Source: Escherichia phage saus132. Taken from it: a stretch of DNA of 64,000 nt. Positions within the stretch are counted from its first letter, which is position 1. Every line of letters starts with the position of its first letter. The notes beneath the pieces were generated by a model. It was not told the DNA's origin. It saw nothing but the letters and a program-made list of their open reading frames with translations, and did no database searches. Below are positions 11,608 to 60,205 of this stretch, piece by piece. The DNA is taken from sequence record NC_047884.1; one strand, 5' to 3'. A program made the translations under genes and the position numbers.

Positions 11608-11894
11608 TAGTTACTCCAAATTAACATCCAACTCTTATCAAAATTAGATGCTCTATTAATTAATTCGCCCATAGAAACATTATTGTCGTCTATGGCTTCT
11701 TGTACAAACTCTTTACCAAAATCATCTAATAAGTATTCTGTATCATTTATAATGATCTTATAGAGAGTTGGGACTAAAGGATGCTGATGATTAAGTGGAT
11801 TCTCGTTAACAGTTATCTCATGCCTCCCCCACGTCGTCTTGAATAGTTTGTGGGAGAGTAGAGCTAAGGGGTTTGACCAGACTACGTACTCCAT
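11607..11894 (-). CDS. hypothetical protein
   Basis: 95-aa ORF; N-terminus overlaps upstream ORF by 77 nt in another frame, start uncertain. Confidence 0.35.
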   Translation of the reverse strand: MEYVVWSNPLALLSHKLFKTTWGRHEITVNENPLNHQHPLVPTLYKIIINDTEYLLDDFGKEFVQEAIDDNNVSMGELINRASNFDKSWMLIWSN

Positions 11895-12360
11895 CTTTCT
11901 TTAACTCCTGTTTTAACTTTTGATCTTTATTATACCAAATTATGTGCTCACCGTCAACTACAAATTTGTGGAAAGATGCTGGTACGGTGTACACTCCATA
12001 TTCTGTTAAGCGTGTCACAACTTTATGGGCGCATAATCGGCAACCGTGTCCTTCTAAGTGAGACCGTGCAGTTTGCAAGAAGTAACCACCGTGATCTGGA
12101 CAATAGATTTCAACTTGCTGTTGCATCGTTCTATACTTAACTCTTTCATACCCAAAGAACTTACCATGTGCTTCTACAGCTCTTCTAATAAAGATAAGAT
12201 TAAGTGCATCTTGCTGAAAGTCTGGATGAAGTTGTTTGAGTTTAGTTCTATTAATAGATCCATCTGACTTAGTGAATCTATTTATGGGGAATTGTAGTGC
12301 TTCCTCATACAGTAATTCATTTATTTTATCACGCATAGTATACACGAAAGGCCAGAACAA
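11818..12360 (-). CDS. hypothetical protein with Cys/His zinc-ribbon-like motif
   Basis: 180 aa; CPDHGGYF...HLEGHGCRLC resembles the Zn-ribbon repeats in the 59519 ORF. Confidence 0.5.
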   Translation of the reverse strand: MFWPFVYTMRDKINELLYEEALQFPINRFTKSDGSINRTKLKQLHPDFQQDALNLIFIRRAVEAHGKFFGYERVKYRTMQQQVEIYCPDHGGYFLQTARSHLEGHGCRLCAHKVVTRLTEYGVYTVPASFHKFVVDGEHIIWYNKDQKLKQELKKDGVRSLVKPLSSTLPQTIQDDVGEA

Positions 12361-12381
12361 TTAAGTCCTGGCCTCTAGAAA

Positions 12382-12804
12382 TTAGGTAGCGTCAATGCTC
12401 ACTAAATCCGTTATAAATTCACCTGATTCCATAGGGATAGAGATCGCAGGGTCACATTCACAGGAGGTTATCCATTCGTCCCATTTACTATCAAGTAAAG
12501 AGATAAAGCTATTAGGACTTCCTCTTTCTTTATACCTAGCTAAATATTCTTCTTTTAGCTCTCGTTCTGGATAAAGCAGAATAAAATCTATTCCAGCAGC
12601 ATGAAGAGCATCTCGTACTTCTTTATGGCTAGAAACTAAGATCAGTTTACCCTCTTCTATAGCTTGTGAAATGTGCTCAATATAGTTCGCTGGAAAGTTA
12701 TCCTTCGGGAATTTAGAAGAATCCGAATCTAGTACACGTGGAAAACACTTAGTAAAGTAAGTCTTACCACACCCTGGAAAAGCAGATATAACATTAAATT
12801 GCAT
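12382..12804 (-). CDS. small P-loop NTPase (putative nucleotide kinase)
   Basis: Walker A GCGKT at residues 11-15; 140 aa. Confidence 0.5.
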   Translation of the reverse strand: MQFNVISAFPGCGKTYFTKCFPRVLDSDSSKFPKDNFPANYIEHISQAIEEGKLILVSSHKEVRDALHAAGIDFILLYPERELKEEYLARYKERGSPNSFISLLDSKWDEWITSCECDPAISIPMESGEFITDLVSIDAT

Positions 12805-12814
12805 AATTATTTCC

Positions 12815-13198
12815 TTAGTGAAGTTGCTTGCCGTTTAAGGTCATATCAGCTGTTTCCAGAAGAGATTCGGTAATCTCACGAGAAACTAGATATTCATCTA
12901 TTGAGTGGCGGCGTTTATAGGCATAAGCATTAACAATCAGATCTAGAGCACCAAGAACATCATGAACAGTTACTTCTCCATTATTATCTAGCTCTTCTTG
13001 TGTAATCTCAATTAACTGGCCAACTGCCATTAAAAGCCCAAGAATATCTGCTGTTTCGCCTGCCACCAGCGGATTAGCACATCCTACTGTAAGATCGAAA
13101 GCATGATTGACAATTGACTGCCCATCAACGCTTCCTTCCTCAATCTGCTTCTCCAACTGCTTCATCTGCTCTAGCACTGGATTTTTCTTTTGTGTCAT
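12815..13198 (-). CDS. hypothetical protein
   Basis: start trimmed to in-frame ATG (MTQKKNPV) with AGGAAA RBS; track start at 13264. Confidence 0.45.
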   Translation of the reverse strand: MTQKKNPVLEQMKQLEKQIEEGSVDGQSIVNHAFDLTVGCANPLVAGETADILGLLMAVGQLIEITQEELDNNGEVTVHDVLGALDLIVNAYAYKRRHSIDEYLVSREITESLLETADMTLNGKQLH

Positions 13199-13607
13199 GG
13201 TAAAGATTTCCTGTATCAGTTGGAAGGAATGCCGATTGTGCCTTCGGCGGATGTTGTTTAGCAATCCAGTTGAGGATCAGTACACGGCTAGGAACGATAT
13301 CGGTATTATACCAGAAATCATGAACCCAATGTCGTGCATTTTCAAACTTACCGAACTTATACGCTTTCTTGAACAGCTCAAAACCAAAACAGTCAGGTGC
13401 AAAATCTACATCACGATAAGGAATTACCTTAGATCCGGTGAGATCTTGAATCGCTGCGTTAATCTCTGTATGCGAGAACTTCGTTTCATGGAAAGTATTA
13501 AAGAAGCGGTAATTAAAACGTCCGTTCGTTTCGACAAACAACTGGATGAATAAATCATTAAATTGGCCATCAAACCAGTAATTCTGTAATCTTTGCAGTG
13601 CTGTCAT
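13140..13607 (-). CDS. hypothetical protein
   Basis: 155-aa ORF; 59-nt overlap with downstream gene. Confidence 0.45.
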   Translation of the reverse strand: MTALQRLQNYWFDGQFNDLFIQLFVETNGRFNYRFFNTFHETKFSHTEINAAIQDLTGSKVIPYRDVDFAPDCFGFELFKKAYKFGKFENARHWVHDFWYNTDIVPSRVLILNWIAKQHPPKAQSAFLPTDTGNLYHDTKEKSSARADEAVGEAD

Positions 13608-13804
13608 TTACGAACCCCATTTATTGCTGCGATAACGCCTTCATACATGAAAGGAAGAACTTGTGAAATGTGGAAATCTTGGACTGTCCAACCAGCTTCT
13701 TGATACATAATGTTAATGATTGCACAACTTAACATAAAAGCTGGTAGAATTATAAAGTAATCCCACGTTGCTTTCTGCAAGTTAGGGTTATAAAAATTAA
13801 TCAT
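13604..13804 (-). CDS. small membrane protein
   Basis: 66 aa, hydrophobic. Confidence 0.4.
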   Translation of the reverse strand: MINFYNPNLQKATWDYFIILPAFMLSCAIINIMYQEAGWTVQDFHISQVLPFMYEGVIAAINGVRK

Positions 13805-13904
13805 CTGTTTTTAAGTCTCCGTATTACTTTGGCCTGCTCAACGATTATGAAAACGGCAACCACTAAACCGAAGATTAGGATTGCCGTAACAGTTGTTAAA
13901 TCAA

Positions 13905-14237
13905 TCAAGGCAGACGCCAAATATAATGGGCTGTCCAAAGTGTTTCTGGTTCATCGTCATGATGCATCACTAGGGACTCTGGAGAATAACTATTAGCCAG
14001 TTCTTTACGAACCATCTCACGTTCTTCACCAGTTTCAATATTTTTAACAATCACTTTCATATTAAGAGGAGTTAGCTCAGAAAGTGGTCGCCATAAGTCT
14101 TCCAGATCTGTTTTAGTTTTATTCTGGATGGATTGCAAGACTTCTAGTGTCTGAGGATCTACATTAATAAACCCACGTTCAGTAACAAAACCTAGAAACT
14201 CGTCCAGCAGGGTTAATTCACTAAAATTAAGCTTCAT
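13905..14237 (-). CDS. hypothetical protein
   Basis: 110-aa ORF. Confidence 0.5.
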   Translation of the reverse strand: MKLNFSELTLLDEFLGFVTERGFINVDPQTLEVLQSIQNKTKTDLEDLWRPLSELTPLNMKVIVKNIETGEEREMVRKELANSYSPESLVMHHDDEPETLWTAHYIWRLP

Positions 14238-14472
14238 CTTTCAGAATATCCTCGATCATGTCAGAAGATTGCTGTAGTTCGTCTACAATGCGTTTAACGT
14301 CAGTTTTTGTCACTTTACCGGCCAACATCGTGAACAGCATTGCAACGATGATGATAGGAACTGGCAGAACAAACAGTGCTACTTTACCAACGTTCTTCGG
14401 GGTCCAGGTATGATACTTAGTAACCAGAACACCAACAATAACCAGATAAAAAGCTAAGATAATTAACATCAT
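14227..14472 (-). CDS. small membrane protein
   Basis: 81 aa, two TM-like segments. Confidence 0.45.
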   Translation of the reverse strand: MMLIILAFYLVIVGVLVTKYHTWTPKNVGKVALFVLPVPIIIVAMLFTMLAGKVTKTDVKRIVDELQQSSDMIEDILKDEA

Positions 14473-14750
14473 TTCTTAATCTCCGTGATTACCTGAGCGC
14501 GCAGGACTTTAATAGGAAGTTTAGTGTTACCAACAAGAGTTTCAATATTCATTAGCTTTTCTTTAAGGAGATCTGAACGTCTTTGGGCTAATTCGATATC
14601 TTCTTCCTGTTCGACAAGGCGTTTAACTAGCCCATCATTGGTGAGGCGCATCCTCTCCATATTTTTATTAGTATTAAGAATGCCAATGATTCCACCAATT
14701 GCTGCTAAAGTCGTGAGAACTAGCAATCCAATTAAAATTTCTGTAATCAT
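14469..14750 (-). CDS. small membrane protein
   Basis: 93 aa, N-terminal TM then coiled coil. Confidence 0.45.
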   Translation of the reverse strand: MITEILIGLLVLTTLAAIGGIIGILNTNKNMERMRLTNDGLVKRLVEQEEDIELAQRRSDLLKEKLMNIETLVGNTKLPIKVLRAQVITEIKK

Positions 14751-15163
14751 TAATCCGTTACTCCATTACTACATTTAATGTAGGGGCTTATAGTTTCATA
14801 AAACTTAATTTTTACTAAGGAGGAATCATTCATTTTACAGAATCTTTTACCCTCTTCAATTTGAAGCTTGACTTCAATTGAGTCTTCCATTTTGTAGGCA
14901 TCTACTACTTCAACCCCAGAATATTTCGATAACGCTTCATCTAATTCTGTTTGTTTAAGTGCAACGTTTGCTTCTGCGAGCACTCTATTACGTTCCGCTA
15001 TTGCTTGTACTTCAGGACTAGTATAAACGTATACTTCTTTAGTTACTGGTTTTGGTAAATCTGCATCTCTTTGACTAAGCATATAGCCCGTCGTGCCCAT
15101 CGAAATACAGAGTGAAACTAAGGCACCAAGCCCTAGTGAATAGAAGAATTGGCTGTAAGTCAT
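14750..15163 (-). CDS. hypothetical membrane-anchored protein
   Basis: 137 aa, N-terminal hydrophobic segment. Confidence 0.5.
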   Translation of the reverse strand: MTYSQFFYSLGLGALVSLCISMGTTGYMLSQRDADLPKPVTKEVYVYTSPEVQAIAERNRVLAEANVALKQTELDEALSKYSGVEVVDAYKMEDSIEVKLQIEEGKRFCKMNDSSLVKIKFYETISPYIKCSNGVTD

Positions 15164-15414
15164 TATTTCTTACCTTTTAGTTGCTTAACTTCACGCTCAA
15201 AAGATGCTGCACGACGTTCGGCAGTTGCTTGATGCTCTTTCGCAAAACGTGCTTCCTGTTTTGCGAGGTTGAATGCCATAGCATTCTTGTTCAGAGAATC
15301 GTACATCTTTTTCATTGCCGGAATAGACATCTTCATGAGCTGACCTTCAAACCCTTGCATGTCCAGCAGGATAGCCAATACGTTTGCCATTTCAGTTTTA
15401 GTCATGTTTTCCAT
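15163..15414 (-). CDS. hypothetical protein
   Basis: start set at ATG after GAGAGGAAG RBS in the conserved promoter leader; track start 15432 is inside the leader. Confidence 0.5.
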   Translation of the reverse strand: MENMTKTEMANVLAILLDMQGFEGQLMKMSIPAMKKMYDSLNKNAMAFNLAKQEARFAKEHQATAERRAASFEREVKQLKGKK

Positions 15415-15446
15415 TTGAACTTCCTCTCTCATTAATTTATAAATAT

Positions 15447-15475
15447 ATTATATAAGATTTCTGGACATTTAGCAA
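15447..15475 (-). promoter_or_regulatory. T5-type early promoter (-35 TTGCTA, 17-bp spacer, -10 TATAAT)
   Basis: minus-strand TATAAT at 15447-15452 and TTGCTA at 15470-15475, followed by the conserved AT-rich leader with GAGAGG RBS. Confidence 0.6.
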
Positions 15476-15480
15476 TTAAA

Positions 15481-16011
15481 TTATTTATTTAATTCTTCTA
15501 ATGCTGGAAGCAACCCGCGAAAGACTTCCTTAACTGCTAGCTCTCCGTGAAGCTCTTCTCTTAATGTATTAGCTGCTTCAACAGCTAAATTTAGATCTTG
15601 GTATCTAAAGTAGCCACCATGTACTGGAGTACTTTCAGAATTTCTGGCTTGGACTCTCCATTGCTGGCGATCTTTCTTCCAGCTAACCCCTAGATATCCA
15701 GAATTAGATTGTGCGACTTTATTACGATTATTTTCCTGAGATGTGGCATCCTTTAGATTACACCATCTGTTATCTTTTCTTATATTATTTAAGTGATGAA
15801 CTAAATCTGGAATATAACCTTCCATATACAGGAAGGCTAATCTATGGGCTGCATATCTTTTTCTGTTTATCCCGATAAATATATAGCCATCTTTATCGGG
15901 ACTGCCAGCGATAGTTCCAGCTTTGGCTCTACCCTTACTGACTTTCCTTATAAAGTCTCCTGTATCGGGATTATATTCAAATAGTTCTTTCAGTAGTTCT
16001 TGTGTTATCAT
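15481..16011 (-). CDS. HNH homing endonuclease
   Basis: 176 aa; N-terminal EYNPDTG motif and AHRLAFLYMEGY..HHLNN.R.DNR HNH-like core; one of four paralogs. Confidence 0.65.
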   Translation of the reverse strand: MITQELLKELFEYNPDTGDFIRKVSKGRAKAGTIAGSPDKDGYIFIGINRKRYAAHRLAFLYMEGYIPDLVHHLNNIRKDNRWCNLKDATSQENNRNKVAQSNSGYLGVSWKKDRQQWRVQARNSESTPVHGGYFRYQDLNLAVEAANTLREELHGELAVKEVFRGLLPALEELNK

Positions 16012-16443
16012 TTACCAATCGTTAACGAAACCTGAGAACTCCGAAGCAAATACTAACTCAAATTTCTCAGCAATTTCAGGATAATCCTTACAGATCAGTT
16101 CGATGCACTTCTCAGGTTCCATACCGTCTTCTTCAGGATCACCGTAATACTTATCCCAAAGATCATCAGGAATAACTTGCTCAGCTAGATCTTGGAAGTT
16201 CACTAACTGATAGCGTGGAGTATCCTCATTAATAAAGATCTCATGCAATTCCTCAGATACTTCTCCCTTATAATCGGAAATTAGCAGAGCATTGCAAGCA
16301 AAACATTCCCACATCATCAAACGCTCAGAAATAGGGTTCGATTTGTCTTGAACATAGGACTGAAAGACTGCCTTAAAAGTAGCTTTAACTTGCTCAAACT
16401 TATCAGCTGTTGCGATTAAGAGTGCTTTATCAATCTTTTGCAT
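16012..16443 (-). CDS. hypothetical acidic protein
   Basis: 143-aa ORF with promoter and RBS upstream. Confidence 0.5.
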   Translation of the reverse strand: MQKIDKALLIATADKFEQVKATFKAVFQSYVQDKSNPISERLMMWECFACNALLISDYKGEVSEELHEIFINEDTPRYQLVNFQDLAEQVIPDDLWDKYYGDPEEDGMEPEKCIELICKDYPEIAEKFELVFASEFSGFVNDW

Positions 16444-16473
16444 TTTGATTCCTTCTCATCAATTTATAAAGTA

Positions 16474-16502
16474 ATTATACAGAAAACTAAGCATTTTAGC
16501 AA
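16474..16502 (-). promoter_or_regulatory. T5-type early promoter
   Basis: TATAAT 16474-16479 and TTGCTA 16497-16502 on minus strand, 17-bp spacer. Confidence 0.55.
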
Positions 16503-16510
16503 ATGAAGTT

Positions 16511-16537
16511 TTAAAATAAAAGGCCTAAGCCTAGGCC
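16511..16537 (-). terminator. putative intrinsic terminator
   Basis: GGCCT..AGGCC hairpin with adjacent A/T run, downstream of the 16605 gene. Confidence 0.4.
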
Positions 16538-16604
16538 CGTAAAGAAAGAGATAAGAACTACTATCCCTATTGCTACAAATATCTCACGAGCCATGCCATC
16601 AAAA

Positions 16605-18878: not shown

Positions 18879-18885
18879 CTGAATT

Positions 18886-19407
18886 TTAGGGCTGTTCTTC
18901 ATATTTCTCATACAAAGCAAATTCGCCAAATAATTCAAATCTCAATTCATTGGCTGCCTCCACAGCATCTTTCTTATGAATAAAAGTGCCACCATAAATA
19001 GACTTGCCATCTTTTTGTACTGTTACTTGCCATTTCCCCGTACTTTTATCCCAAGAAACATTTTTATAACCAGAAGTATTATCAGACCGTTTAGTAATAT
19101 TGGCTATATTTTGGGATTGTGTACAAGATCTGAGATTGTCATAAATATTGTTATCTCTAACCCTATCTTTGTGGTCTACCCGTTTTGGTAGGTATCCTTC
19201 CATGTATAAGATAGCCAATCTATGAGCTTGTTGGGCTTTACCATTTACTCGTATATAGATATATCCATTCTGCTTACTACCTGCTTTATTACCCGCATTT
19301 TTCTTATTCCACGCTAGGGATGCATCTGCCCTCTCTTTCCATGTGAACTCTCCAGTGAGAGGATTGTAATCAAGTATTGATTTAATATATTCTTGTGTTA
19401 ATTCCAT
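18886..19407 (-). CDS. HNH homing endonuclease
   Basis: 173 aa; paralog of the 15481 and 19750 ORFs. Confidence 0.65.
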   Translation of the reverse strand: MELTQEYIKSILDYNPLTGEFTWKERADASLAWNKKNAGNKAGSKQNGYIYIRVNGKAQQAHRLAILYMEGYLPKRVDHKDRVRDNNIYDNLRSCTQSQNIANITKRSDNTSGYKNVSWDKSTGKWQVTVQKDGKSIYGGTFIHKKDAVEAANELRFELFGEFALYEKYEEQP

Positions 19408-19466: not shown

Positions 19467-19757
19467 TTAATCTTCTGGATTATCTTCCAGGAAGTTTTTG
19501 ATTGCATCGTGCATAGTTTCTTTACGAAGCTGACGACCAATCAGAATGTGGTTGGCTTCCACACGACCATTAGGGAGACGATCTGCTAGAACTACTACAG
19601 GAACCTGACGAACGCCAAATTTCTGCATAAGTTCTGTGTTATCAGTCTCTTTATGAACTTCTAGACTGTAGTCCTGTACTACTTTATCGAATACAGGCTC
19701 GAACATTTTGCACGGATTGCAGGTAGATCCCTTTAATAGATATACTAATTTACTCAT
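19467..19757 (-). CDS. thioredoxin-like protein
   Basis: CxxC motif STCNPCK; start set to the in-frame ATG that avoids overlap with the upstream HNH gene. Confidence 0.45.
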   Translation of the reverse strand: MSKLVYLLKGSTCNPCKMFEPVFDKVVQDYSLEVHKETDNTELMQKFGVRQVPVVVLADRLPNGRVEANHILIGRQLRKETMHDAIKNFLEDNPED

Positions 19758-20277
19758 GTTTATCTCCTTTAAATGGTTCATATAGGGCAAATTCCCCAAA
19801 TAATTCAAATCTTAACTCATTGGCAGTTTCTACAGCATCTTTGAGGTTTGTGAAGTATCCTCCCGAGTAGGATTTACCATCTTTCATAACCTGTACTTGC
19901 CATTTACATGTTTTCTTTGTCCAATATACGTTCTTATATCCAGAACTATTGTTCGAATACTTTAACGCATTAGCACCATTTTGAGAGACTGTAGCTTCTC
20001 GTAGGTTAAGCCATTTATTATCAGACCTAACTCTGTTTTCGTGGTCTACTCTTGCAGGCATATAGCCTTCCATGTAAAGAAAGGCTAATCTATGTGCCCC
20101 ATGCACTTCAGAATCAACAGTAATATTGATATAACCGTTATTTTGAGGATTGCCAGCAATTTTTCCTGCAAATTGCTTGTTAAAACCACTTCTATCTACC
20201 TTTCGGCTCTTCCATATAAATATCCCTGTATCTGGATTGTACTCTAGAAGTTCCTTCAATCTTTCTTGGGTAATCAC
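19750..20277 (-). CDS. HNH homing endonuclease
   Basis: 175 aa; same N-terminal and HNH motifs. Confidence 0.65.
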   Translation of the reverse strand: MITQERLKELLEYNPDTGIFIWKSRKVDRSGFNKQFAGKIAGNPQNNGYINITVDSEVHGAHRLAFLYMEGYMPARVDHENRVRSDNKWLNLREATVSQNGANALKYSNNSSGYKNVYWTKKTCKWQVQVMKDGKSYSGGYFTNLKDAVETANELRFELFGEFALYEPFKGDKHE

Positions 20278-35065: not shown

Positions 35066-35143
35066 TGGCGGTTCCTGCTGGATTCGAACCAGCAACCCTC
35101 AACTTAACAAGATGCCGCTCTAACCAATTAGAGCTAAGGAACC
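35066..35143 (-). tRNA. tRNA-Asn (anticodon GUU), weak anticodon stem
   Basis: perfect acceptor GGTTCCT/AGGAACC; T-arm GCTGG-TTCGAAT-CCAGC; loop TTGTTAA; two stem mismatches. Confidence 0.5.
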
Positions 35144-35638
35144 ATATAAGTCAGAACTAGAGTTAATACGTTCTAGATATTTACTAAGATCCCTAGAATT
35201 TATACTAAACCACTCATGTTCTTTTAAGTCTTTGAAATATTGGTGAATTTGTTTTTCACCTTTTCGTTTGTCAAACCAAAACGACCAATGCTCTAGTTTA
35301 TAGTCCCTATAAGGACTATAAGTTTGATACTGAGCTAATCTCTCTTTTGGATTTTGACTCATACCTATTTTATACTGGTTTTTCCATGCAGGATTACTGA
35401 TACAGTATACAAAACCTTCAGAAATAGGAAGCTTATTTTCCTGTTTAAACTTTATAAAGGAAAGTGCGGCAAGTTTCCTCGAATACAGAGTATTTGTATT
35501 CTTTTTGGTATTACCACTGGTTCCTGAAAGATTTATATACTCTTCCATAAATCTTTGGATTAGTTCTGTGGTTATGTAGAAAGGCTCATTAGTAACAATG
35601 CCTTTCTCTACCAAGCTGTCAAAAACTTTTGTATGCAC
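35120..35638 (-). CDS. T5orf172/GIY-YIG-like domain protein
   Basis: 172 aa; GFVYCISNP...YKIGMSQNPKERLAQY resembles the T5orf172 core. Confidence 0.5.
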   Translation of the reverse strand: MHTKVFDSLVEKGIVTNEPFYITTELIQRFMEEYINLSGTSGNTKKNTNTLYSRKLAALSFIKFKQENKLPISEGFVYCISNPAWKNQYKIGMSQNPKERLAQYQTYSPYRDYKLEHWSFWFDKRKGEKQIHQYFKDLKEHEWFSINSRDLSKYLERINSSSDLYGSLALIG

Positions 35639-35659
35639 TACTTCTTTCCTTTAGTAATT

Positions 35660-35734
35660 TGGAGCATCCTGTTGGAATTGAACCAACCTAGACGATTTTG
35701 CAGACCGTCACCTAAGCCACTCGGACAAGGATGC
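35660..35734 (-). tRNA. tRNA-Cys (anticodon GCA)
   Basis: perfect acceptor GCATCCT/AGGATGC; anticodon loop CTGCAAA; T-loop TTCAATT. Confidence 0.65.
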
Positions 35735-35737
35735 AAA

Positions 35738-36010
35738 TTAATCTACTTCACACATATCATCATAGCCACAAGTTGGGCATTCCCAATGACATTCGTCATG
35801 CTCACCGCATTGAGCACATTCATAAATCTTTGGCTTTTCAACTTCTTCTAGATTAATAAATTCTAGATCATCGAAGTTACCAATGGATCTGGCATAGTAA
35901 CCATCGCCTGCGTCATAACCTGATTTACCACACTCACACATCTTAAACTCACGCAGATGTGTGAAGATATGTTCAGAGCCACAACACTTAAATTTAACTA
36001 ACTTTTTCAT
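35738..36010 (-). CDS. zinc-ribbon protein
   Basis: 90 aa; several CxxC pairs. Confidence 0.5.
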   Translation of the reverse strand: MKKLVKFKCCGSEHIFTHLREFKMCECGKSGYDAGDGYYARSIGNFDDLEFINLEEVEKPKIYECAQCGEHDECHWECPTCGYDDMCEVD

Positions 36011-53212: not shown

Positions 53213-53695
53213 TTATAAACTATCAAGCTCCAATAGTTTAGCATCGCGCCATTCTATAGCATCCTCTAATTCTTTAAATGTTTTAGTATGTTTTACACCT
53301 TTCCTAGCTATTTGGACTTGATAAGATCCACTTGCTTTTTGGTGTATATTTTTAATACCTAACTTATTGTCCTTATGTGCTCCAACGTTCTTTCCATTAC
53401 TAAATCTGTTAGAGGCTAGTAAATTAATTGCTCTATTATCATGACGTATTCTATTATCATGATCTACTTCTTTTGGGATGTACCCATGCGTAATATAGAA
53501 TGCTAGGATATGTGCGTAGTATTTTGTACCTCTTACCTGCATTACTATGTATCCTGAGCATTTTTCCAAAGAGCCTGCCTCTTTGCCTGCAAACTTAGTA
53601 TTAAATGATTTATCTTCTCTAGGTTTGTGGGTAAAGATTCCGGTTTCTGGATTATAGTCAAATAACTCAGCTATTTCTTTGTATTTTTCTTCCAT
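53213..53695 (-). CDS. HNH homing endonuclease between nrdA and nrdB
   Basis: 160 aa; EYNPETG and AHILAFYITHGY..DHDNRIRHDNR motifs. Confidence 0.6.
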   Translation of the reverse strand: MEEKYKEIAELFDYNPETGIFTHKPREDKSFNTKFAGKEAGSLEKCSGYIVMQVRGTKYYAHILAFYITHGYIPKEVDHDNRIRHDNRAINLLASNRFSNGKNVGAHKDNKLGIKNIHQKASGSYQVQIARKGVKHTKTFKELEDAIEWRDAKLLELDSL

Positions 53696-53727: not shown

Positions 53728-53745
53728 AAGGGGCTTTCGCCCCTT
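53728..53745 (-). terminator. putative intrinsic terminator (GGGGCTTTCGCCCC hairpin)
   Basis: third copy of the hairpin, downstream of nrdA. Confidence 0.45.
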
Positions 53746-53750
53746 ATTTA

Positions 53751-56084
53751 TTATAATTGACAACCACCAGATGCGCATCCAGCAGCAGCTTCCTCTCCTG
53801 CACCTCCACCATTTTCAGTGTTGAAGTTTGCATAATAAAAGGTTTTCCAACCGTACTTAACAGCAGTCATAAAGTCACGAACTACTACTGGGCCGGGAAT
53901 GATTTCATTCTCGAACTTGGTGTAGTCATAGTACATATTCGTACTGATAGACTGGCTGAAGAATTTCTGCATGGTTGCTACCCATTTGATCCACTCGATA
54001 CGATCTACATCATAAGCCAGTTTATAGCTCATTAATGTATCCCAATCAGTTGCACCTGGAGCAATTGCAATTACTTTATTCACTGCACTACCCTTGATAG
54101 ATACGATCTTACGGGGCGGTTCGATAGAGTTAGTAACACCTAGCAGTACAGAGGAACTTTCACCTGGCATCTGAGCAGTCAGAACAGAGTTGCGCATACC
54201 ATATTTCAGAATATCTGCACGCAGAGATTCCCAATCCATTTCTAGACCTACAGTTACCAGTTCATCAACAGTTTTCTTGTACGTGTCGATTACCAGAGTT
54301 CCTTGCGAAGGCTTAGTACGATTAAACCAGTCACATGCACCTTGTTCTTTAGCCAGACGTACAGAGGCTTTATGTAGGAAGTAGGACAGCTTTTCAGCTT
54401 CACGGTGAATCCAGTTACGTGCTTCAACACCTTCGTAAGCCAAACCTTCTGCTGCCATTGCACCTGCTGCGTTCATCAGACCAATACCAACGTTACGACG
54501 TTTCTTAGCCGTGTATTCCATAGTTGGGAATGGATAATCCTGAATCTCGATGATTGTATCAACGAATTTCAGAAGGATGTAGCAAGTTTTCTCCCATTCA
54601 GCCAGAGATTCCATGCGGCCTAGTACAACACCACCTAAGTTACACAGAGATACTTCACCAATATCTTCTGGACGCATATCGTCTAACTGATCTTGGGTTT
54701 TATACAGTTCCGTAACGTGATGGAATGGACGGGTTGGCTGAGTAATTTCAACACAAAGGTTGGTCATACGAATCGGGTCAAGGAAGTTACCATGACGGTT
54801 AGATTCACCAATGTGATGAGCATACATACGCCCTGTTTCCATACGGATACGTAACCAAGTATCTAGGATTTCTTTTGCAGAGATTCTAGGAGCTGCTGGA
54901 ATTGTTTTTCCTTCGTGGTCGATCTTTGTAAGAGATGCCACACGTTTCTCCGCTGCCACGTAGATTTCTTCAAACTTAGCCTCATCTTCACCATAAAACG
55001 CTTCATGAACTTCTGGTGCGTAGAAGTAGGACATTAGCGTAATATCTTCGTTTTTCAGGTAACGTTTTAACAGAAGGTTGTTAAAGCTCAGAGAATAATC
55101 CATCTTATCGATTTTATTCTCGTCTGTAGCACGTTGCTGCTTAACCTGCATCAACTGAATGATTTCAGGATCGAAGTATGGATAAGACACAGTAGCAGAA
55201 CCGCCACGGGTTTGCTGAGTGTTAGCTTTTACTGAACGGTCAATGTGTCGATAATATGGCAGTTTTCCGGAATGCGGGAATGCCCCATTTCGCACCGGAT
55301 CAGCAATTGATCGGCTTTCAAGATGATACCCGATTCCCGCTCTGGCTGCGACCATTTTGAAGACGATATGCTCGGCTGTGTCGATTGAATCCAGCGTGTC
55401 AGTGGAATCCACGAGGCAACAACTAGCAAATCCACGGTCACTAGAGCGCAGGCCAACCAGTGGCGGCGTAGGAACGTTGATTTTGTGGAGCGACATTGCA
55501 TTGTAGAGGTCGATTGCATCTAGAATTGTCCAGTTAGGTTGAGATAACATCGCCATTGCCATACCCATGTAGGCAAACTGCGGGGTTTCATAAATTTCAC
55601 CAGTTGCAATATTACGACGAGAATACTTGTCGAAGAACTGTTTCAGTCCACCACTGGTGAATAAACGATCGCGATCATGATCAATAACTTGGTTCAGAGC
55701 GTCAAACTGATCATCGCTAATCCATGCACTCATGTCTTCCCAAGCGCCAACACGAACCATATGATCGTGGAAGAAACGCAGAGAAGGTGGTTCGAAGGAA
55801 TCATATAGGCGTTTACGCATCTGCGCAAGACGTAATTCCTTTGCTGGCACATCGTATGCTGGGTTATCTTTGATAAGACCTTCAGCGGCTTTAATTAACG
55901 CATCCATTAGGGTATCGGAATCTACAACACCTTTAGGTAGAGTTTTTTGAGCAGACATAGTGATGGCTGACCAGCTCACATCAACTGTTTTGCAGCCATA
56001 TACTGCCCAACCATTGAGTTTTTCAGGAGCAAAGTCTTCTACAGTACCGTCACGTTTAATTACTTTTGTAATTCTAAAGTCCAT
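53751..56084 (-). CDS. nrdA: ribonucleotide reductase large subunit
   Basis: ATP-cone VIKRDG near N-terminus and class I RNR catalytic core; start set at ATG after AAGGAA RBS (track start 56144). Confidence 0.8.
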   Translation of the reverse strand: MDFRITKVIKRDGTVEDFAPEKLNGWAVYGCKTVDVSWSAITMSAQKTLPKGVVDSDTLMDALIKAAEGLIKDNPAYDVPAKELRLAQMRKRLYDSFEPPSLRFFHDHMVRVGAWEDMSAWISDDQFDALNQVIDHDRDRLFTSGGLKQFFDKYSRRNIATGEIYETPQFAYMGMAMAMLSQPNWTILDAIDLYNAMSLHKINVPTPPLVGLRSSDRGFASCCLVDSTDTLDSIDTAEHIVFKMVAARAGIGYHLESRSIADPVRNGAFPHSGKLPYYRHIDRSVKANTQQTRGGSATVSYPYFDPEIIQLMQVKQQRATDENKIDKMDYSLSFNNLLLKRYLKNEDITLMSYFYAPEVHEAFYGEDEAKFEEIYVAAEKRVASLTKIDHEGKTIPAAPRISAKEILDTWLRIRMETGRMYAHHIGESNRHGNFLDPIRMTNLCVEITQPTRPFHHVTELYKTQDQLDDMRPEDIGEVSLCNLGGVVLGRMESLAEWEKTCYILLKFVDTIIEIQDYPFPTMEYTAKKRRNVGIGLMNAAGAMAAEGLAYEGVEARNWIHREAEKLSYFLHKASVRLAKEQGACDWFNRTKPSQGTLVIDTYKKTVDELVTVGLEMDWESLRADILKYGMRNSVLTAQMPGESSSVLLGVTNSIEPPRKIVSIKGSAVNKVIAIAPGATDWDTLMSYKLAYDVDRIEWIKWVATMQKFFSQSISTNMYYDYTKFENEIIPGPVVVRDFMTAVKYGWKTFYYANFNTENGGGAGEEAAAGCASGGCQL

Positions 56085-56207
56085 TGCGGTTTCCTTTTTA
56101 TAGTTCTCAGGATTTAGATAGTATTCTACTTTGTTTTGAGTCATTATGCAAGTACAATTTTTCAGATAAAAAGAGCCCGGATATTTTCATACCCAGGCTC
56201 GTCTGTC

Positions 56208-56450
56208 TTACCATTTAAGTTTATCGGCTTGATCAAGTAACTGCTGTTGTATTTCTCGGTTAAAGAGAATATCTACAGAAGTACTTAGTTCATTATAGTT
56301 GAAAGGCCGATTTGGATTAGAGGCTACAATTTTCCACGCTAGGGTAGTCTTAGGACTTTCTTCTCCTTCCTTACGTGTAATCATATTAGCAGCACTCAAT
56401 GAAGTACGGTGGATCTTAGTTTTGCGGTGCAGATGTACGACGTTTCCCAT
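56208..56450 (-). CDS. hypothetical protein
   Basis: 80-aa ORF between phoH and nrdA. Confidence 0.4.
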   Translation of the reverse strand: MGNVVHLHRKTKIHRTSLSAANMITRKEGEESPKTTLAWKIVASNPNRPFNYNELSTSVDILFNREIQQQLLDQADKLKW

Positions 56451-56451
56451 A

Positions 56452-57204
56452 TTACACCTTCCCCATATCCTTAAAGATATCGTAGAATGCTTTAGACTCT
56501 GGTGAGCGAACGTTGTCGATCAGTTCGATCATAGAGAAAGGAGAGTTTTCGTACTTCTCATAGACTTCCATAAGAAGTGCTAGACCTGAATCACCCTTGA
56601 TGTCTTTCTGAGCTATATCTCCACAGATAATTAGACGACAATCTTGTCCGACACGAGTCAAGAGACAGATCATTGCTTCAACGGAGATATTCTGAGCTTC
56701 ATCGACAATTACATAGGAGTTGTTGAAAGTTCGGCCACGGGCATGTTCGATAGCCAGGAATTTGATTTTCTGACGTTCGACATATCCTTTGTAGGCGTGA
56801 TCACCGATTGCCCATTTCATGCCATCGGCTATTGGTTCCAACCAAGGCTCTAGCTTTTCTGCTAGATCACCTGGGAGCATACCAAGAGATTTACCTAGAG
56901 GTTCGTTCGGACGCACGAGGATCACTTGCTCAATATCTGAGTGAATGTCTACGAGTTCCTGAGCTGCAAGAACGGACGGAATAAAGGTTTTACCAGTACC
57001 TGGTTCACCGATACCCACAGTCACTGTGTTGTTCTTGATCATATTGATATATGATTTTTGCTCACGGTTTTTACCAACTAGGGATTTAGCAACTGGATTG
57101 GCGTAATCACCAGAGAAATCTGCTTGAATTACGTTACTCTCATACTTGTTGCCACGCTTTCTTGAACCATTGCGGTTCTCTCTTTTTTGACGTGCTTTTC
57201 CCAT
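56452..57204 (-). CDS. phoH: PhoH-like ATPase
   Basis: Walker A GEPGTGKTF; start set at ATG after AGGAG RBS (track start is GTG at 57213). Confidence 0.75.
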   Translation of the reverse strand: MGKARQKRENRNGSRKRGNKYESNVIQADFSGDYANPVAKSLVGKNREQKSYINMIKNNTVTVGIGEPGTGKTFIPSVLAAQELVDIHSDIEQVILVRPNEPLGKSLGMLPGDLAEKLEPWLEPIADGMKWAIGDHAYKGYVERQKIKFLAIEHARGRTFNNSYVIVDEAQNISVEAMICLLTRVGQDCRLIICGDIAQKDIKGDSGLALLMEVYEKYENSPFSMIELIDNVRSPESKAFYDIFKDMGKV

Positions 57205-57277
57205 AAATAACACTCCTATAGTGTACTTCGCTAACAGAGGATCAACAAAAAGATCTTGTTTATCAACTTACAAATAT

Positions 57278-57306
57278 ATTATACCAATATATGCGGGAGA
57301 AAGCAA
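57278..57306 (-). promoter_or_regulatory. T5-type early promoter for phoH
   Basis: TATAAT 57278-57283, TTGCTT 57301-57306, 17-bp spacer. Confidence 0.5.
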
Positions 57307-57498
57307 CTACAATTTTAAATAAGCCTATGATATTGCATTTAAATAAAAAATTTGCTTGCTTTTATTGGGAGATGTATGGTACTAGATAATCATTTTATAT
57401 CGCGTACACGGGCGCGTGATTATACTATTTTTAATAGAGGTTGGCAAATAAAATTTTTTGACTCAGATCATGTTACAGAACTTTATAGTAAAATATTG

Positions 57499-57527
57499 TT
57501 GACATCCGCCTTCGAATGAGTTATAAT
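57499..57527 (+). promoter_or_regulatory. consensus sigma70 promoter for nrdD (TTGACA-17-TATAAT)
   Basis: TTGACA 57499-57504, 17-bp spacer, TATAAT 57522-57527; GAAGGAGGG RBS before ATG 57557. Confidence 0.65.
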
Positions 57528-57556
57528 AGTAGTCTTAGTTAGAGAAGGAGGGTATA

Positions 57557-59431
57557 ATGAATCGCAATGAAGAACTAAAATATAAAGGAATGCAGTCCTT
57601 AATTCGAAACTGCAAAGAAATTATCGAAGGTTCAGCAGATGAAGAGCTGCTGTTTAATAATGCCAATAAGCCCTCAGAACGTTTCCCTACACAAAGGGAT
57701 ATGCTTGCAGGGGAATTGAGTAAATATCTGATTCTGGAAGAAATGCCAATCCAGATTCGAAATGCTCACATGATTGGTGATATTCACTTCCATGATGCTG
57801 ATTACGCTGCGTTAGGTATGACTAACTGTTGCCTGGTTGCTTTGGAAGATATGTTGAAGAATGGTATGAAGGTTGGTAATGCTGAAATCAGTACGCCAAA
57901 CTCCATTACTACTGCGGCTGCTATTACAGCTCAGATTATCACTCAGGTTAGCTCACACCAATATGGTGGTACTTCTGTAGACCGATTAGATGAAGTATTG
58001 GCTCCTTATGTTCGTAAGTCTTACGATAAGAATCATGCGTTTGCAAAACGTTGGACTAAGGATGAAGCCAAAGCATCTGTAATGGCTACGGAAATGACTG
58101 AGAAAGAAGTTTACGATGCCTGTCAAGGTCTAGAGTATGAAATCAATACGATGTTCAACTCTAATGGTCAGAGTCCATTTATTACCTTTGGTTTTGGTCT
58201 AGGAACTTCCTGGGAAGCACGTCTTGTACAGAAAGCAATCTTAGAAGTGCGTATGGATGGTTTGGGTATCAATAAACGTACAGCTATCTTCCCTAAACTG
58301 GTATTTGTTTTGCGTGATGGCGTAAATATGAAACCTGGTGATGTTAACTATGATATCAAGAAGTTAGCTATGAAATGTACTGCTGAACGTATGTATCCTG
58401 ACTACATCAGTTATGATAAGGTTGTAGAAGTTACGGGAGACTACAAAGTCTCTATGGGCTGTCGTTCATTCCTGGCTGCTGCGGAAGATGGTGAAACTTC
58501 TGGTCGTAACAACTTAGGCGTTGTTTCCGTAAACCTTCCTCGAATCGCTATCGAAGCGGAAGGAAATATTGATCTATTCTTCGATCTGCTTGAGCTGCGT
58601 GTGGATACCGCGTTAAAAGCATTGGAGTGGAGGGTTGATCGCTTAAAATACATCCAAGCTAAAGCTGCGCCCATCCTCTATATGTCAGGAGCCTTTGGAT
58701 TACGTCTGGGGCCAGATGAATATGTGTTTGATCATTTCTACAAGCGTGCTTCTGTATCTCTAGGATATATTGGTTGCCACGAAATGTTGCAGCTCATGTT
58801 TGGTAAAGATGTAGATACAATGTCTGAGTCTTGTATCAAGTTCGTTCAACGTGTGCTACAATACATGCGTGATCGTGCTGATCAGAAGAAGGAAGAGACT
58901 CAATTAGGGTATAGTCTGTATGCTACACCATCTGAATCTCTATGTGATCGCTTCTGTCGTCTAGATCGTGAGTATTTCCCAGAGCATGAAGATATTCTGG
59001 CTAAAGGATATTACACTAACTCTCATCACCTTGATGTGGAGCGTAAGGTTGCTCCGAACGTGAAGTTCGATTATGAGTCTAACTTTACCCCAATTGCTTC
59101 TGGTGGGTGCATTTCCTATGTGGAATTGCCTGATATGAAACGATTCCCAGATGCGCTGGAGTGGGTTATTAACTATGCTGCAAGTAAAGTTCATTACTTC
59201 GGTATTAATACTCCAGTAGACTCTTGTGGGGAATGTGGATTCTTGGGTGAAACTATAGCTTCTGAGGATGGTTTCAAATGCCCAATTTGTGGCAACCATG
59301 ATCCTGAGACTCTTGAGGTAACTCGTCGAGTTTGCGGATATCTTGGAAATCCAGGTGCTCGTCCATTTAACCCAGGTAAACAACATGAGGTTATGGGTCG
59401 AGTGAAACATCAGGACATTCGCGCTAAATAA
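57557..59431 (+). CDS. nrdD: anaerobic ribonucleoside-triphosphate reductase (class III RNR)
   Basis: 624 aa; C-terminal CPICG zinc site and TRRVCGYLG glycyl-radical motif. Confidence 0.8.
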   Translation: MNRNEELKYKGMQSLIRNCKEIIEGSADEELLFNNANKPSERFPTQRDMLAGELSKYLILEEMPIQIRNAHMIGDIHFHDADYAALGMTNCCLVALEDMLKNGMKVGNAEISTPNSITTAAAITAQIITQVSSHQYGGTSVDRLDEVLAPYVRKSYDKNHAFAKRWTKDEAKASVMATEMTEKEVYDACQGLEYEINTMFNSNGQSPFITFGFGLGTSWEARLVQKAILEVRMDGLGINKRTAIFPKLVFVLRDGVNMKPGDVNYDIKKLAMKCTAERMYPDYISYDKVVEVTGDYKVSMGCRSFLAAAEDGETSGRNNLGVVSVNLPRIAIEAEGNIDLFFDLLELRVDTALKALEWRVDRLKYIQAKAAPILYMSGAFGLRLGPDEYVFDHFYKRASVSLGYIGCHEMLQLMFGKDVDTMSESCIKFVQRVLQYMRDRADQKKEETQLGYSLYATPSESLCDRFCRLDREYFPEHEDILAKGYYTNSHHLDVERKVAPNVKFDYESNFTPIASGGCISYVELPDMKRFPDALEWVINYAASKVHYFGINTPVDSCGECGFLGETIASEDGFKCPICGNHDPETLEVTRRVCGYLGNPGARPFNPGKQHEVMGRVKHQDIRAK

Positions 59432-59518
59432 TGAATCAGCCAGGTTGCTAGTCGACCTGGCTTTTATTTTATTTGCTTTCGAGCTAAAACTTAGGTATAA
59501 TTGTACAAGGAGGGCTAA

Positions 59519-60205
59519 ATGGTACGAAGGAAGTTAGATAAAGACACTATCAATAAAGATTTAGAGCCTAGAAGAATTAAGCTAATAAGTGAGTATTCTG
59601 GAATCCTTAATAAAGGCACATTCATATGTAGTGTAGGTCATACATGGGAAGCTACTGTTAATAATGTAAGGAATAGCAAATCTGGCTGTCCAATATGCGC
59701 AGGTACTTTTAAACTTACTAAAGATTCGGTAAATGAAGGGTTACGTAGTAGGGGTATTACTCTTATTGGAGAGTATAAAAATAATGCTACTAAAACTCTT
59801 TTTGAATGTGAGCATGGGCATAGGTGGGAAGCCACAGTAGGCAATGTAAAGAATAAAAATTCTGGGTGTCCTGTGTGCGATACTGATTGGAATACCCCTG
59901 GTTTTATATACATTATGTGTAGTAGTATGGGAACTAAAATAGGAATTAGTATCTCTCCTGAAAGACGGTGGAAAGAGATAGTTAAAAGCTCCAATATACT
60001 AGATTTATATATTTTTGGTGTCTATTCAATAGATTCTGGTACCAAATCTAAAAGTAGGTCTATCGAGAAACAGACTCATGAATATTTTTCAGAATATAGA
60101 TTAAAGTATACAGGATTTGCTGGATGTACTGAATTCTTTGATATATCTCCCATAGCCGTAGAAAAGCACTTAATTAATAATGGGTGTATAAAGGTAGAAA
60201 AATAA
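59519..60205 (+). CDS. T5orf172-domain protein with two zinc-ribbon repeats
   Basis: two repeats GH(T/R)WEATV.NV.N..SGCP.C, then GFIYIMCSSMGTKIGISISPERRWKEI core. Confidence 0.55.
   Translation: MVRRKLDKDTINKDLEPRRIKLISEYSGILNKGTFICSVGHTWEATVNNVRNSKSGCPICAGTFKLTKDSVNEGLRSRGITLIGEYKNNATKTLFECEHGHRWEATVGNVKNKNSGCPVCDTDWNTPGFIYIMCSSMGTKIGISISPERRWKEIVKSSNILDLYIFGVYSIDSGTKSKSRSIEKQTHEYFSEYRLKYTGFAGCTEFFDISPIAVEKHLINNGCIKVEK

Follow-up and report, generated by a model that had tools for sequence, protein, structure and literature searches.

The question raised by the 64,000-nt stretch of Escherichia phage saus132 analysed here (NC_047884.1; the window) is whether three proteins encoded along it are related DNA-binding nucleases, as a first-pass annotation had suggested on describing a zinc-ribbon module shared by all three and a T5orf172-like domain in two of them. 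The window corresponds to bases 1-64000 of T5-like phage chee130_1 (MF431736). The span 11818-60205, given there as one feature, is in fact three separate genes at three loci of a T5-like phage genome, called ORF A, ORF B and ORF C below (Table 1). What had been observed was partly confirmed, and the interpretation placed on it was partly supported. The ribbon does occur twice in ORF C and once in ORF A, but ORF B has a single cysteine in the whole protein and no zinc finger or ribbon, so that the ribbon is common to two proteins rather than three. Its specific form, C-x2-3-H...G-C-x2-C, is confined to ORF A and ORF C; a looser ribbon pattern also picks up the C-terminal ribbon of NrdD itself and six unrelated ORFs, several of which are overlapping or unannotated frames. 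We consider it probable that ORF B and ORF C are free-standing T5orf172 homing endonuclease genes (HEGs), with ORF A as a DNA-binding relative that is not a nuclease.

Table 1. Features of the three genes and their surroundings (positions in the window).
Feature	Position	Strand	Description
ORF A	11818..12336	-	172 aa; probable ATG start at 12336; ortholog of T5.023; absent from GenBank annotation
ORF A zinc-finger module	12022..12141	-	aa 66-105; ligands C79, H82, C99, C102 (C-x2-H...G-C-x2-C)
tRNA-Asn	35066..35143	-	directly downstream of ORF B
ORF B	35120..35638	-	172 aa; GTG start, RBS AAGGA; ortholog of T5.069; absent from GenBank annotation
ORF B T5orf172 nuclease domain (predicted)	35165..35416	-	aa 75-158; G75-F-V-Y, K90-I-G, R100, E128, H132
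tRNA-Cys	35660..35734	-	directly upstream of ORF B
nrdD terminator	59438-59462		3' of nrdD, before the ORF C insertion
ORF C-bearing insertion	59502..60247	+	746 bp; from blastn break points against chee24 and junction sequences
ORF C	59519..60205	+	228 aa; two tandem treble-clef zinc-finger modules, then a C-terminal T5orf172 domain
ORF C zinc-finger module 1	59540..59704	+	aa 8-62; ligands C37, H41, C57, C60; Pfam DUF4379
ORF C zinc-finger module 2	59720..59884	+	aa 68-122; ligands C97, H101, C117, C120; CapR and DUF4379
ORF C T5orf172/GIY-YIG-superfamily domain	59900..60166	+	aa 128-216; G128-F-I-Y, K140-I-G, R149/R150, E183, H187

The prediction for ORF B and ORF C is based on domain architecture, conserved catalytic residues and a GIY-YIG-like model of ORF C, and also on empty-site alleles, patchy distribution and identity across lineages far above that of the flanks. 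ORF C has a strong RBS (AAGGAGG, with the ATG 5 nt further on), and its zinc motifs read C37-x3-H41...G-C57-x2-C60 and C97-x3-H101...G-C117-x2-C120; the two modules are 50% identical (29 of 58 positions; score 158 versus 23 +/- 4.8 for shuffles). In the model secondary structure, module 1 runs through a helix, a beta-hairpin, a short helix and a CxxC knuckle; in alignment A2 its ligand columns are almost invariant, as C97, C117 and C120 of module 2 are entirely. Pfam profiles matched ORF C (DUF4379 in two stretches, E 6e-13; CapR over aa 79-120, 2.3e-8; MUG113, 1.4e-7; T5orf172, 1.5e-5) and ORF B (MUG113, 8.8e-16; T5orf172, 1.4e-11, spanning positions 1-100 of the 101-position profile), all above the curated cut-offs, and ORF B also matched phrog_5032 (4e-63). 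The profile search proposed as a check on the annotation thus returned significant T5orf172 matches for both proteins and zinc-finger matches for ORF C, and the GxVY...KIG core described in the two is present, as G75-F-V-Y...K90-I-G in ORF B and G128-F-I-Y...K140-I-G in ORF C. The N-terminal 72-aa domain of ORF B, with one Cys, is of no recognised type.

Within the GIY-YIG nuclease superfamily, the T5orf172 class forms a branch in which the conserved first-helix His/Tyr is missing (PMC8263062), and against canonical GIY-YIG enzymes (I-TevI, SLX1, UvrC, R.Eco29kI) Pfam PF01541 stayed below threshold (E 0.016 and 0.11). Its sole biochemically characterised nuclease is ICP1 Odn (Gp88), in which the substitution E180A abolishes activity both in vitro and in vivo (PMC8263062); our literature search found no biochemically characterised T5orf172 protein of the T5 family. 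The T5orf172 domain of Odn shares little sequence identity with those of ORF B and ORF C but has the same motif order, and its catalytic E180 aligns with E128 of ORF B and E183 of ORF C, its motif Arg with R100 and R149-150, respectively. The model of ORF C (pLDDT 84) has a beta-beta-alpha-beta-alpha topology, a predicted fold that is GIY-YIG-like and matches active GIY-YIG nucleases. The proposal of DNA-binding nucleases therefore stands for ORF B and ORF C, given the profile matches and the retained Arg and Glu of Odn, and fails for ORF A, which has no nuclease domain. Conceivably neither T5orf172 domain has catalytic activity, and the three proteins all act as regulators that bind DNA: the earliest prediction for T5orf172, drawn from its association with Bro-N/KilA-N, was of a DNA-binding domain (cited in PMC8096241), UniProt-derived names still read 'T5 Orf172 DNA-binding domain', and ORF A exemplifies a retained nuclease-less relative. 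We find this quite improbable given that both residues needed in Odn are kept, that the modelled fold agrees with active enzymes and that the genes behave like mobile insertions.

In the HEG-less allele of chee24 the two flanks of the ORF C insertion lie 4 bp apart, and the insertion is bounded on one side by a TATAAT box that follows the nrdD terminator and on the other by the RBS of ORF 60271. ORF C DNA was present in 15 of the ~443 T5-like records matching the nrdD region (3%), and about 85 further phage records carry ORF 60271 DNA without it. Between mar003J3 and this phage, identity is 87-97% in the nrdD flanks but 99.5-100% in the cassette, where ORF C differs at 2 nt.

At the ORF B locus, the last 8 codons of the gene, with its stop codon, are the first 24 nt of the tRNA-Asn gene, while at the empty site of Sw2 and oselot tRNA-Cys and tRNA-Asn are separated by 7-8 bp. 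Homology with Sw2 stops inside tRNA-Asn, at 35090, and the tRNA-Asn allele here is unrelated to that of phages without ORF B and 100% identical to that of T5, in which T5.069 occupies the same tRNA-Cys/tRNA-Asn slot. ORF B and T5.069 share 96% amino acid and 94% nucleotide identity (dN 0.022, dS 0.26), as compared to saturated synonymous sites in ORF A (pS 0.74) and 63% identity in a neighbouring ORF; only 78 records carry ORF B at 90% identity or more (about 16% of T5-like records). Separately, the identity of ORF B and tRNA-Asn with T5 could in part reflect selection on the tRNA.

Alternatively, one or both genes may have been domesticated, their nucleases serving the phage instead of homing actively, with possible roles in site-specific destruction of competitor phage, satellite or host DNA, as for Odn, or in phage DNA processing. 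The purifying selection on ORF B (dN/dS about 0.08) would fit such a role but is expected for active HEGs too, and the patchy distribution of both genes favours selfish spread over a needed function. Domestication has a precedent in Odn, a T5orf172 nuclease serving as an anti-satellite defence (PMC8263062), and it gains something from a weak match of ORF B to the candidate defence family PDC-S57 through the T5orf172 part and from the point that homing is not inferable from sequence alone (Barth et al.); however, the clean empty sites, the insertion beside nrdD and within a tRNA cluster, and the excess of cassette identity over that of the flanks lead us to regard it as unlikely.

ORF A is a different kind of gene: nearly all T5-like phages have it, and it is under purifying selection. 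Its listed TTG start at 12360 is probably not the real one. In the protein, a helical N-domain (aa 1-57) is followed by one zinc-finger module, a beta C-domain of five strands (aa 104-149) and a tail that is disordered. The module is of the superfamily seen in ORF C, and the other domains are lineage-specific. The sequence of ORF A itself has no Pfam match, CapR falling below threshold; it does match phrog_4605 (6.7e-83), and its structural neighbours in BFVD are phage endonucleases. Its T5 counterpart, T5.023, is an early gene. Homology between the zinc fingers of ORF A and ORF C is remote, and its support is indirect and transitive. ORF A and ORF C were not significantly similar by pairwise BLASTP or by Smith-Waterman with shuffles, nor did an HMM of the ORF A family match ORF C. 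The link is instead supported by phrog_681 ('endonuclease'), which matches ORF A residues 56-114 (E 1.4e-9) as well as ORF C (E 2.9e-49); by hhalign of the two families (E 1.2e-4, probability 55%); by the ORF A family profile, which matched 24,710 representative proteins, seven of the eight scanned top-ranked matches being tandem arrays of Pfam DUF4379/DUF723/CapR (profile positions 50-106); and by a natural fusion in phage SE8, which matches ORF A aa 9-111 at 60% identity and ORF C aa 118-226 at 30% (E 8e-21). In phages SE8/SE11, a homolog of the N-terminal half of ORF A forms the half that binds DNA in a complete T5orf172 endonuclease.

The missing GenBank annotation and weak RBS of ORF A, together with the lack of a Pfam match and of significant pairwise similarity to ORF C, could suggest a decaying HEG remnant, or a CxxH...CxxC motif arisen by chance, without function. 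This reading is already largely refuted, and we give it very little credence: ORF A has counterparts of at least 60% identity in some 518 phage records from several genera, differs from T5.023 (76% identity) far more at synonymous than at nonsynonymous sites (pN 0.144 versus the pS given above), keeps all four zinc ligands invariant in 17 diverged homologs (alignment A1), yields a confident AF2 model (pLDDT 86.8; residues 1-149 mostly >90) and belongs, by its profile matches, with a large zinc-finger repeat family. Having no nuclease domain, ORF A is at most a DNA-binding protein, and by analogy with CapR it most likely acts as a sequence-specific one. CapR, a zinc-finger DNA-binding repressor of the Vibrio cholerae satellite PLE that is related to T5orf172 HEGs and needs its four zinc ligands for DNA binding (PMC8096241), is likewise nuclease-less, and its zinc-finger domain is homologous to T5orf172 endonucleases in their N-terminal part; it differs in its ligands (CxxC...CxC rather than CxxH...CxxC) and in being satellite-encoded, whereas ORF A is a phage gene with extra N- and C-terminal domains.

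That the function of these proteins is unknown, as first stated, understates what has been described for this class of free-standing HEGs. T5-like phages are enriched in T5orf172 HEGs with CapR/DUF723/DUF4379 zinc-finger repeats, and these HEGs are located close to the genes for terminase and ribonucleotide reductase (PMC10448857); one of the genes here falls within a minority, about 13%, of the T5orf172 HEGs surveyed there (Barth, Dunham and Seed 2023, PMC10448857). ORF C, patchy in a T5-like phage and beside a ribonucleotide reductase gene, resembles them, and T5.154 ('P-TflXVII') has the same DUF4379, CapR and T5orf172 architecture (34% identical), although its position is between the genes for the terminase large subunit and the portal, and ORF C follows nrdD. 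T4 SegB and T5 F-TflI/II/IV are, like ORF B, free-standing endonuclease genes between tRNA genes, some overlapping a tRNA, but SegB belongs to the canonical GIY-YIG enzymes and the F-Tfl proteins to the HNH enzymes, in contrast to the T5orf172 protein ORF B; for SegB and the F-Tfl enzymes an association with preferential inheritance of the tRNA region has been described (PMC2330249; T5 annotation). Odn differs from both ORFs in that its DNA-binding part, a RepA_N domain, was captured from a satellite and in that it is a domesticated anti-satellite defence nuclease, not a homing enzyme.

One could thus envision homing during co-infection with a T5-like phage missing the gene. The protein would bind a specific sequence of the allele that lacks the gene, ORF C through its tandem zinc-finger modules and ORF B through its N-terminal domain; the T5orf172 domain would then cut or nick the bound DNA, and recombinational repair off the gene-bearing genome would copy the gene and some flank into the recipient. 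We infer nuclease activity, target site and homing alike from the comparisons above. ORF C is a predicted free-standing T5orf172-type HEG, and together with ORF B it would be an ordinary member of a class of selfish mobile nuclease genes that, including its zinc-finger repeats in T5-like phages, was already described in 2023 (PMC10448857).

We found that two of the three proteins grouped in the first-pass annotation, ORF B and ORF C, are predicted nucleases of the T5orf172 class, and that the third, ORF A, has a probable remote tie to ORF C through a zinc-finger module (C-x-x-H...C-x-x-C). The zinc ribbon had been described as occurring twice in ORF C and once in ORF A, and these motifs are real: among the window ORFs, the strict form (C-x2-3-H...G-C-x2-C) is present only in these two. 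It is not common to all three proteins, since ORF B has a single cysteine and no ribbon. A looser pattern also matches the ribbon of NrdD itself and six unrelated ORFs, several of which are overlapping or unannotated frames. The T5orf172 core ascribed to ORF B and ORF C was borne out by Pfam matches above the curated cut-offs (PF10544 and PF13455, both of the GIY-YIG clan); the profile search proposed with PF10544 and zinc-ribbon models was thus significant for ORF B (PF10544) and ORF C (both) but gave nothing for ORF A. NCBIfam gave no matches. No other window ORF belongs to the same zinc-finger/T5orf172 network.

A 4.5-kb segment around ORF C shows 100% identity to the T5-like phage chee130_1 (MF431736.1; Epseptimavirus, Demerecviridae) at identical coordinates, so that the window corresponds to bases 1-64000 of this GenBank entry. 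The window contains the left terminal repeat, the early region, nucleotide-metabolism genes and a minus-strand cluster of 28 tRNA genes, and the GenBank record annotates no gene in 11491-12381 or 35144-35659. Endonuclease-like genes lie next to the nrd genes, with an HNH_3 ORF between nrdA and nrdB and ORF C directly after nrdD.

Features of the window and of related phages, with coordinates (those of relatives refer to their own loci)
Feature	Coordinates	Strand	Remarks
T5.022 ortholog	11607-11894		Well conserved, inside unannotated stretch
ORF A (T5.023 ortholog)	11818-12336	-	Well conserved, unannotated in record
Near-consensus promoter	11929-11957	-	TTGACG, 17 nt, TG-TATAAT; 11/12 matches; inside 3' part of ORF A
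Endonuclease-like ORF	18886-19407	-	HNH_3 + AP2
Endonuclease-like ORF	19750-20061	-	Truncated HNH_3 + AP2
tRNA-Asn	35066-35143	-	Considered together with tRNA-Cys and L008 767-932
ORF B (T5.069 ortholog)	35120-35638	-	Well conserved, unannotated in record
tRNA-Cys	35660-35734	-
90-aa protein	35738-36010	-	Four CxxC pairs; directly upstream of tRNA-Cys/ORF B
Short HNH_3-only ORF	53213-53542	-	Between nrdA and nrdB
ORF C	59519-60205	+
ORF 60271	60271-60630	+	119 aa, no family match; directly 3' of ORF C insertion
242-aa form, T5.023-like DNA-binding half	2492-3220		SE8, L006
242-aa form, T5.023-like DNA-binding half	2289-3017		slur09, L016
118-aa ORF, T5orf172 domain alone	2227-2583		DT571/2, L014
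118-aa ORF, T5orf172 domain alone	2383-2739		FFH1, L015

ORF C, a 'hypothetical protein' in the record, matches DUF4379 ('probable treble clef zinc finger') in two stretches (E 6e-13, 49.2 bits vs a cut-off of 24.5), CapR (E 2.3e-8, 34.5 bits vs 24.2), MUG113 (PF13455; E 1.4e-7, 32.4 bits, over the curated cut-off of 22.3) and T5orf172 (PF10544; E 1.5e-5, 25.9 bits, over the curated cut-off of 20). Its two zinc modules are identical at 29/58 positions, with an alignment score of 158 vs 23 +/- 4.8 for shuffled sequences, and across its family C97, C117 and C120 are invariant while C37, H41, C57, C60 and H101 are conserved at 90% or more. The AlphaFold (AF2) model (mean pLDDT 84; pTM low, as expected for a beads-on-a-string layout) places two equal modules, each a helix, beta-hairpin, short helix and knuckle, ahead of a beta-beta-alpha-beta-alpha domain (beta129-135, beta138-144, alpha147-158, beta164-170, alpha176-193), so modelled as a GIY-YIG-like alpha/beta fold. 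The nuclease domain alone found no homologs when used as query, and a PDB sequence search with ORF C returned zero matches at E up to 10. Over its full length ORF C is 34% identical to T5.154, whose gene in T5 separates the large terminase gene from the portal gene and which the DT571/2 annotators call 'putative homing endonuclease P-TflXVII'. A near-identical protein in mar003J3 (2 nt differences) is named 'endonuclease / putative Hef-like homing endonuclease', which would imply homology to 'Hef' of phage U5; the T4-like match inspected for the Hef question lies at a different locus.

The surroundings of ORF C point to mobility. It occupies a 746-bp insertion (59502-60247) that stretches from just past the TATAAT box following the nrdD terminator to just short of the ORF 60271 ribosome-binding site; in chee24 the two flanks are 4 bp apart. 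A TTGCTT lies 17 nt upstream of this TATAAT and the pair looks sigma-70-like by eye; the promoter scan raised no flag at the site, and the reading as a promoter of ORF C was rejected. ORF C DNA was found in 15 phage records only, with ORF 60271 present without ORF C in some 85 further records and about 443 records matching the nrdD region. The phage mar003J3 belongs to another species: identity in 200-bp windows is 87-97% across nrdD but 99.5-100% across 59600-60600, and the 684 nt of ORF C differ at 2 positions. This pattern is characteristic of a recent lateral spread accompanied by co-conversion. In KKP 3953, ORF 60271 and ORF C are together replaced by an unrelated 345-bp segment; the slot downstream of nrdD thus has at least three alternative fillings.

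ORF B begins with GTG, preceded by AAGGA, and is 96% identical to T5.069, which has the same length (172 aa) and likewise sits between the tRNA-Cys and tRNA-Asn genes. It has Pfam matches in both nuclease families (MUG113, PF13455: E 8.8e-16, 58.7 bits vs a cut-off of 22.3; T5orf172, PF10544: E 1.4e-11, 45.2 bits vs 20), and a PDB sequence search gave insignificant matches only (best E 0.089). Because T5.069 has 172 residues and matches the Pfam profile from end to end, we infer that it is the eponymous 'T5 orf172'. The last eight codons of ORF B (GSLALIG) and its TAG stop (35120-35143) coincide with the first 24 nt of tRNA-Asn, the acceptor/D-arm sequence, and the arrangement in T5 is identical.

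In Sw2 and oselot, which are without ORF B, tRNA-Cys and tRNA-Asn are 7-8 bp apart, which makes this a precise empty site. Homology between the window and Sw2 ends inside tRNA-Asn, at 35090: the tRNA-Asn beside ORF B is a 78-nt allele, 100% identical to that of T5, and the Sw2 gene is an 83-nt allele of unrelated sequence. T5-like phages thus have two unrelated tRNA-Asn genes, the shorter with ORF B and the longer, in Sw2, without it. The window tRNA-Cys differs from those of both T5 and Sw2. These alternative alleles imply that the tRNA cluster is a mosaic with borders inside tRNA genes. ORF B is present at 90% identity or more in 78 records. Between T5 and the window phage it shows dN 0.022 and dS 0.26, as compared to pN 0.144 and pS 0.74 (saturated) for ORF A and 63% identity for a small ORF neighbouring ORF B; with divergence this low relative to ORF A and the neighbour, the ORF B module would be much younger than the backbone. 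Its greater likeness across lineages than that of its flanks is suggestive of recent spread or co-conversion, and both ORF B and ORF A are under purifying selection.

The neighbouring 90-aa protein, in which there are four CxxC pairs, is another kind of zinc protein, unrelated to the module of ORF A and ORF C. It matches Pfam DUF7695 slightly under the cut-off, has a weak L32p-like ribbon, and matches phrog_7042 over its first 61 residues only; its C-terminal part lies within the segment that differs from Sw2.

The T5orf172 HEGs (homing endonuclease genes), a class described by Barth, Dunham and Seed in 2023 (PMC10448857), are enriched in T5-like phages, in most cases no more than about 3 kb from a terminase, ribonucleotide reductase or capsid gene; 87% carry at least one CapR, DUF723 or DUF4379 module (the last mostly printed as 'DUF4397' in that paper) as beads on a string, and these modules are swapped by recombination (PMC10448857). 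The same authors caution that sequence alone cannot prove homing (PMC10448857). Metal-dependent DNA cleavage by a T5orf172 domain has been demonstrated in the literature for Odn (ICP1 Gp88) only, the one T5orf172 protein with biochemistry, in which the E180A change abolishes activity in vitro and in vivo (PMC8263062). In our MAFFT alignment the counterparts of Odn E180 are E128 in ORF B and E183 in ORF C, and those of the motif arginine are R100 and R149/150; because both residues are kept, ORF B and ORF C look catalytically competent. The earlier suggestion of DNA-binding nucleases can accordingly be kept, as a prediction from the T5orf172 profile and the retained Arg and Glu, for ORF B and ORF C, but not for ORF A, which has no nuclease domain. 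ORF B, like SegB in the T4 tRNA cluster (PMC2330249) and the HNH enzymes F-TflI/II/IV in that of T5, is wedged between tRNA genes. By their domains and setting, ORF B and ORF C are probably ordinary, free-standing members of this known group of selfish nuclease genes; ORF B is the ortholog of T5.069, and the architecture of ORF C is that of T5.154. As for a link of T5.154 or T5orf172 to the T5 genome nicks or to host DNA degradation, the literature examined does not mention these genes. The class is already known, and its presence here is no surprise for the specialist.

As first listed, ORF A spans 11818-12360 and begins at a TTG. The start of T5.023 (148 aa, 76% identical) matches the ATG at 12336, so we take ORF A to begin there and to encode 172 aa. 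At 60% identity or more it occurs in about 518 phage records, from T5-like phages of Salmonella, Escherichia, Klebsiella and Yersinia. In its model (pLDDT 86.8) a helical N-domain precedes the zinc module, which is followed by a beta domain of five strands and a disordered tail, and C79, H82, C99 and C102 are invariant among 17 diverged homologs (alignment A1). Neither Pfam, with 0 families matched and no T5orf172 profile match, nor the model shows a nuclease domain; a PDB sequence search with the family profile from A1 gave zero at E up to 10. One could envision the C-terminal beta domain as a vestigial T5orf172 GIY/YIG hairpin; this was unsupported, in that extending the BLASTP alignment through 'NKDQ...K.GV' left the score unchanged at 137 bits. 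The T5 record annotates a promoter inside T5.023 at the place equivalent to the near-consensus promoter in ORF A.

Direct homology between the zinc modules of ORF A and ORF C was insignificant by BLASTP, by shuffled Smith-Waterman and with the ORF A family HMM. We nevertheless tie the two proteins because of matches to a common profile, a profile-profile alignment, tandem-array relatives, the invariant ligands and a natural fusion. The profile phrog_681 ('endonuclease') covers residues 56-114 of ORF A (E 1.4e-9) and also matches ORF C (E 2.9e-49), and in hhalign the ribbons align at E 1.2e-4, the probability being only 55%. In a library of 1.84 billion proteins the ORF A family profile found 24,710 representative proteins at E <= 0.001, and in the top-matching ones, of roughly 400-1000 aa, profile positions 50-106 recur as 5-14 tandem copies; of eight such matches (from P0055-P0204) run against Pfam, seven are DUF4379/DUF723/CapR arrays, and none of the eight long proteins has a nuclease domain by that search. 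Only 4/17 members of the ORF A family have Pfam matches to DUF723/DUF4379, and these are weak (best E 0.006-0.01). Among the predicted viral structures of BFVD, the best neighbour of ORF A is the SE11 'endonuclease', followed by phage proteins named T5orf172, GIY-YIG or restriction enzyme. The ORF A module is thus probably a remote member of the CapR/DUF4379/DUF723 superfamily.

The fusion is the SE8/SE11 'endonuclease', a 242-aa protein with a T5orf172 match over the Pfam cut-off. Over residues 4-106 it shares 60% identity with ORF A 9-111 (numbered from the TTG), and over residues 118-236 it shares 30% identity with the nuclease domain of ORF C (E 8e-21); it is thus the bridge between the two. 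The fused gene is present in 35 records. SE8 and slur09 are without the T5.022-024 slot; mutual exclusion of the fused gene and stand-alone T5.023 was ruled out, both being present in about 18 of the 35. In different T5-like phages the 242-aa form and a 118-aa ORF occupy the same site beside the left terminal repeat, and the window phage has neither. ORF A would on this comparison be a nuclease-less relative of the fused HEG-type protein, arising either by loss of the nuclease or with the fused gene having captured a T5.023-type DNA-binding half. It resembles in this the CapR protein of the satellite PLE, a nuclease-less HEG relative and zinc-dependent DNA-binding repressor, and the one case among these modules in which zinc-dependent, sequence-specific DNA binding has been demonstrated (PMC8096241); by analogy, ORF A may bind DNA. 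A bolder reading, which we consider improbable, is that the T5.023 family is an ancient, fixed, nuclease-less member of the HEG zinc-finger group acting as a sequence-specific early DNA-binding factor (e.g., a regulator or site protector), and that SE8/SE11 is an Odn-like chimera, a T5orf172 nuclease with a captured T5.023-type DNA-binding half aimed at the T5.023 site in competing phages. We found no description of this reading in the literature examined.

Beyond annotation, the significance of these findings is slight. The GenBank record leaves two conserved genes, those orthologous to T5.023 and T5.069, without annotation, and the 'hypothetical protein' after nrdD is probably a mobile endonuclease gene. 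Genes of this kind mark the limits of genetic exchange among T5-like phages, and these limits bear on the comparison and engineering of phages proposed for food safety and therapy. What is mildly new is the tie of a near-universal early protein, T5.023, to the DNA-binding half of a T5orf172 endonuclease, which offers a testable idea of what this T5 early gene, annotated only as hypothetical, may do.
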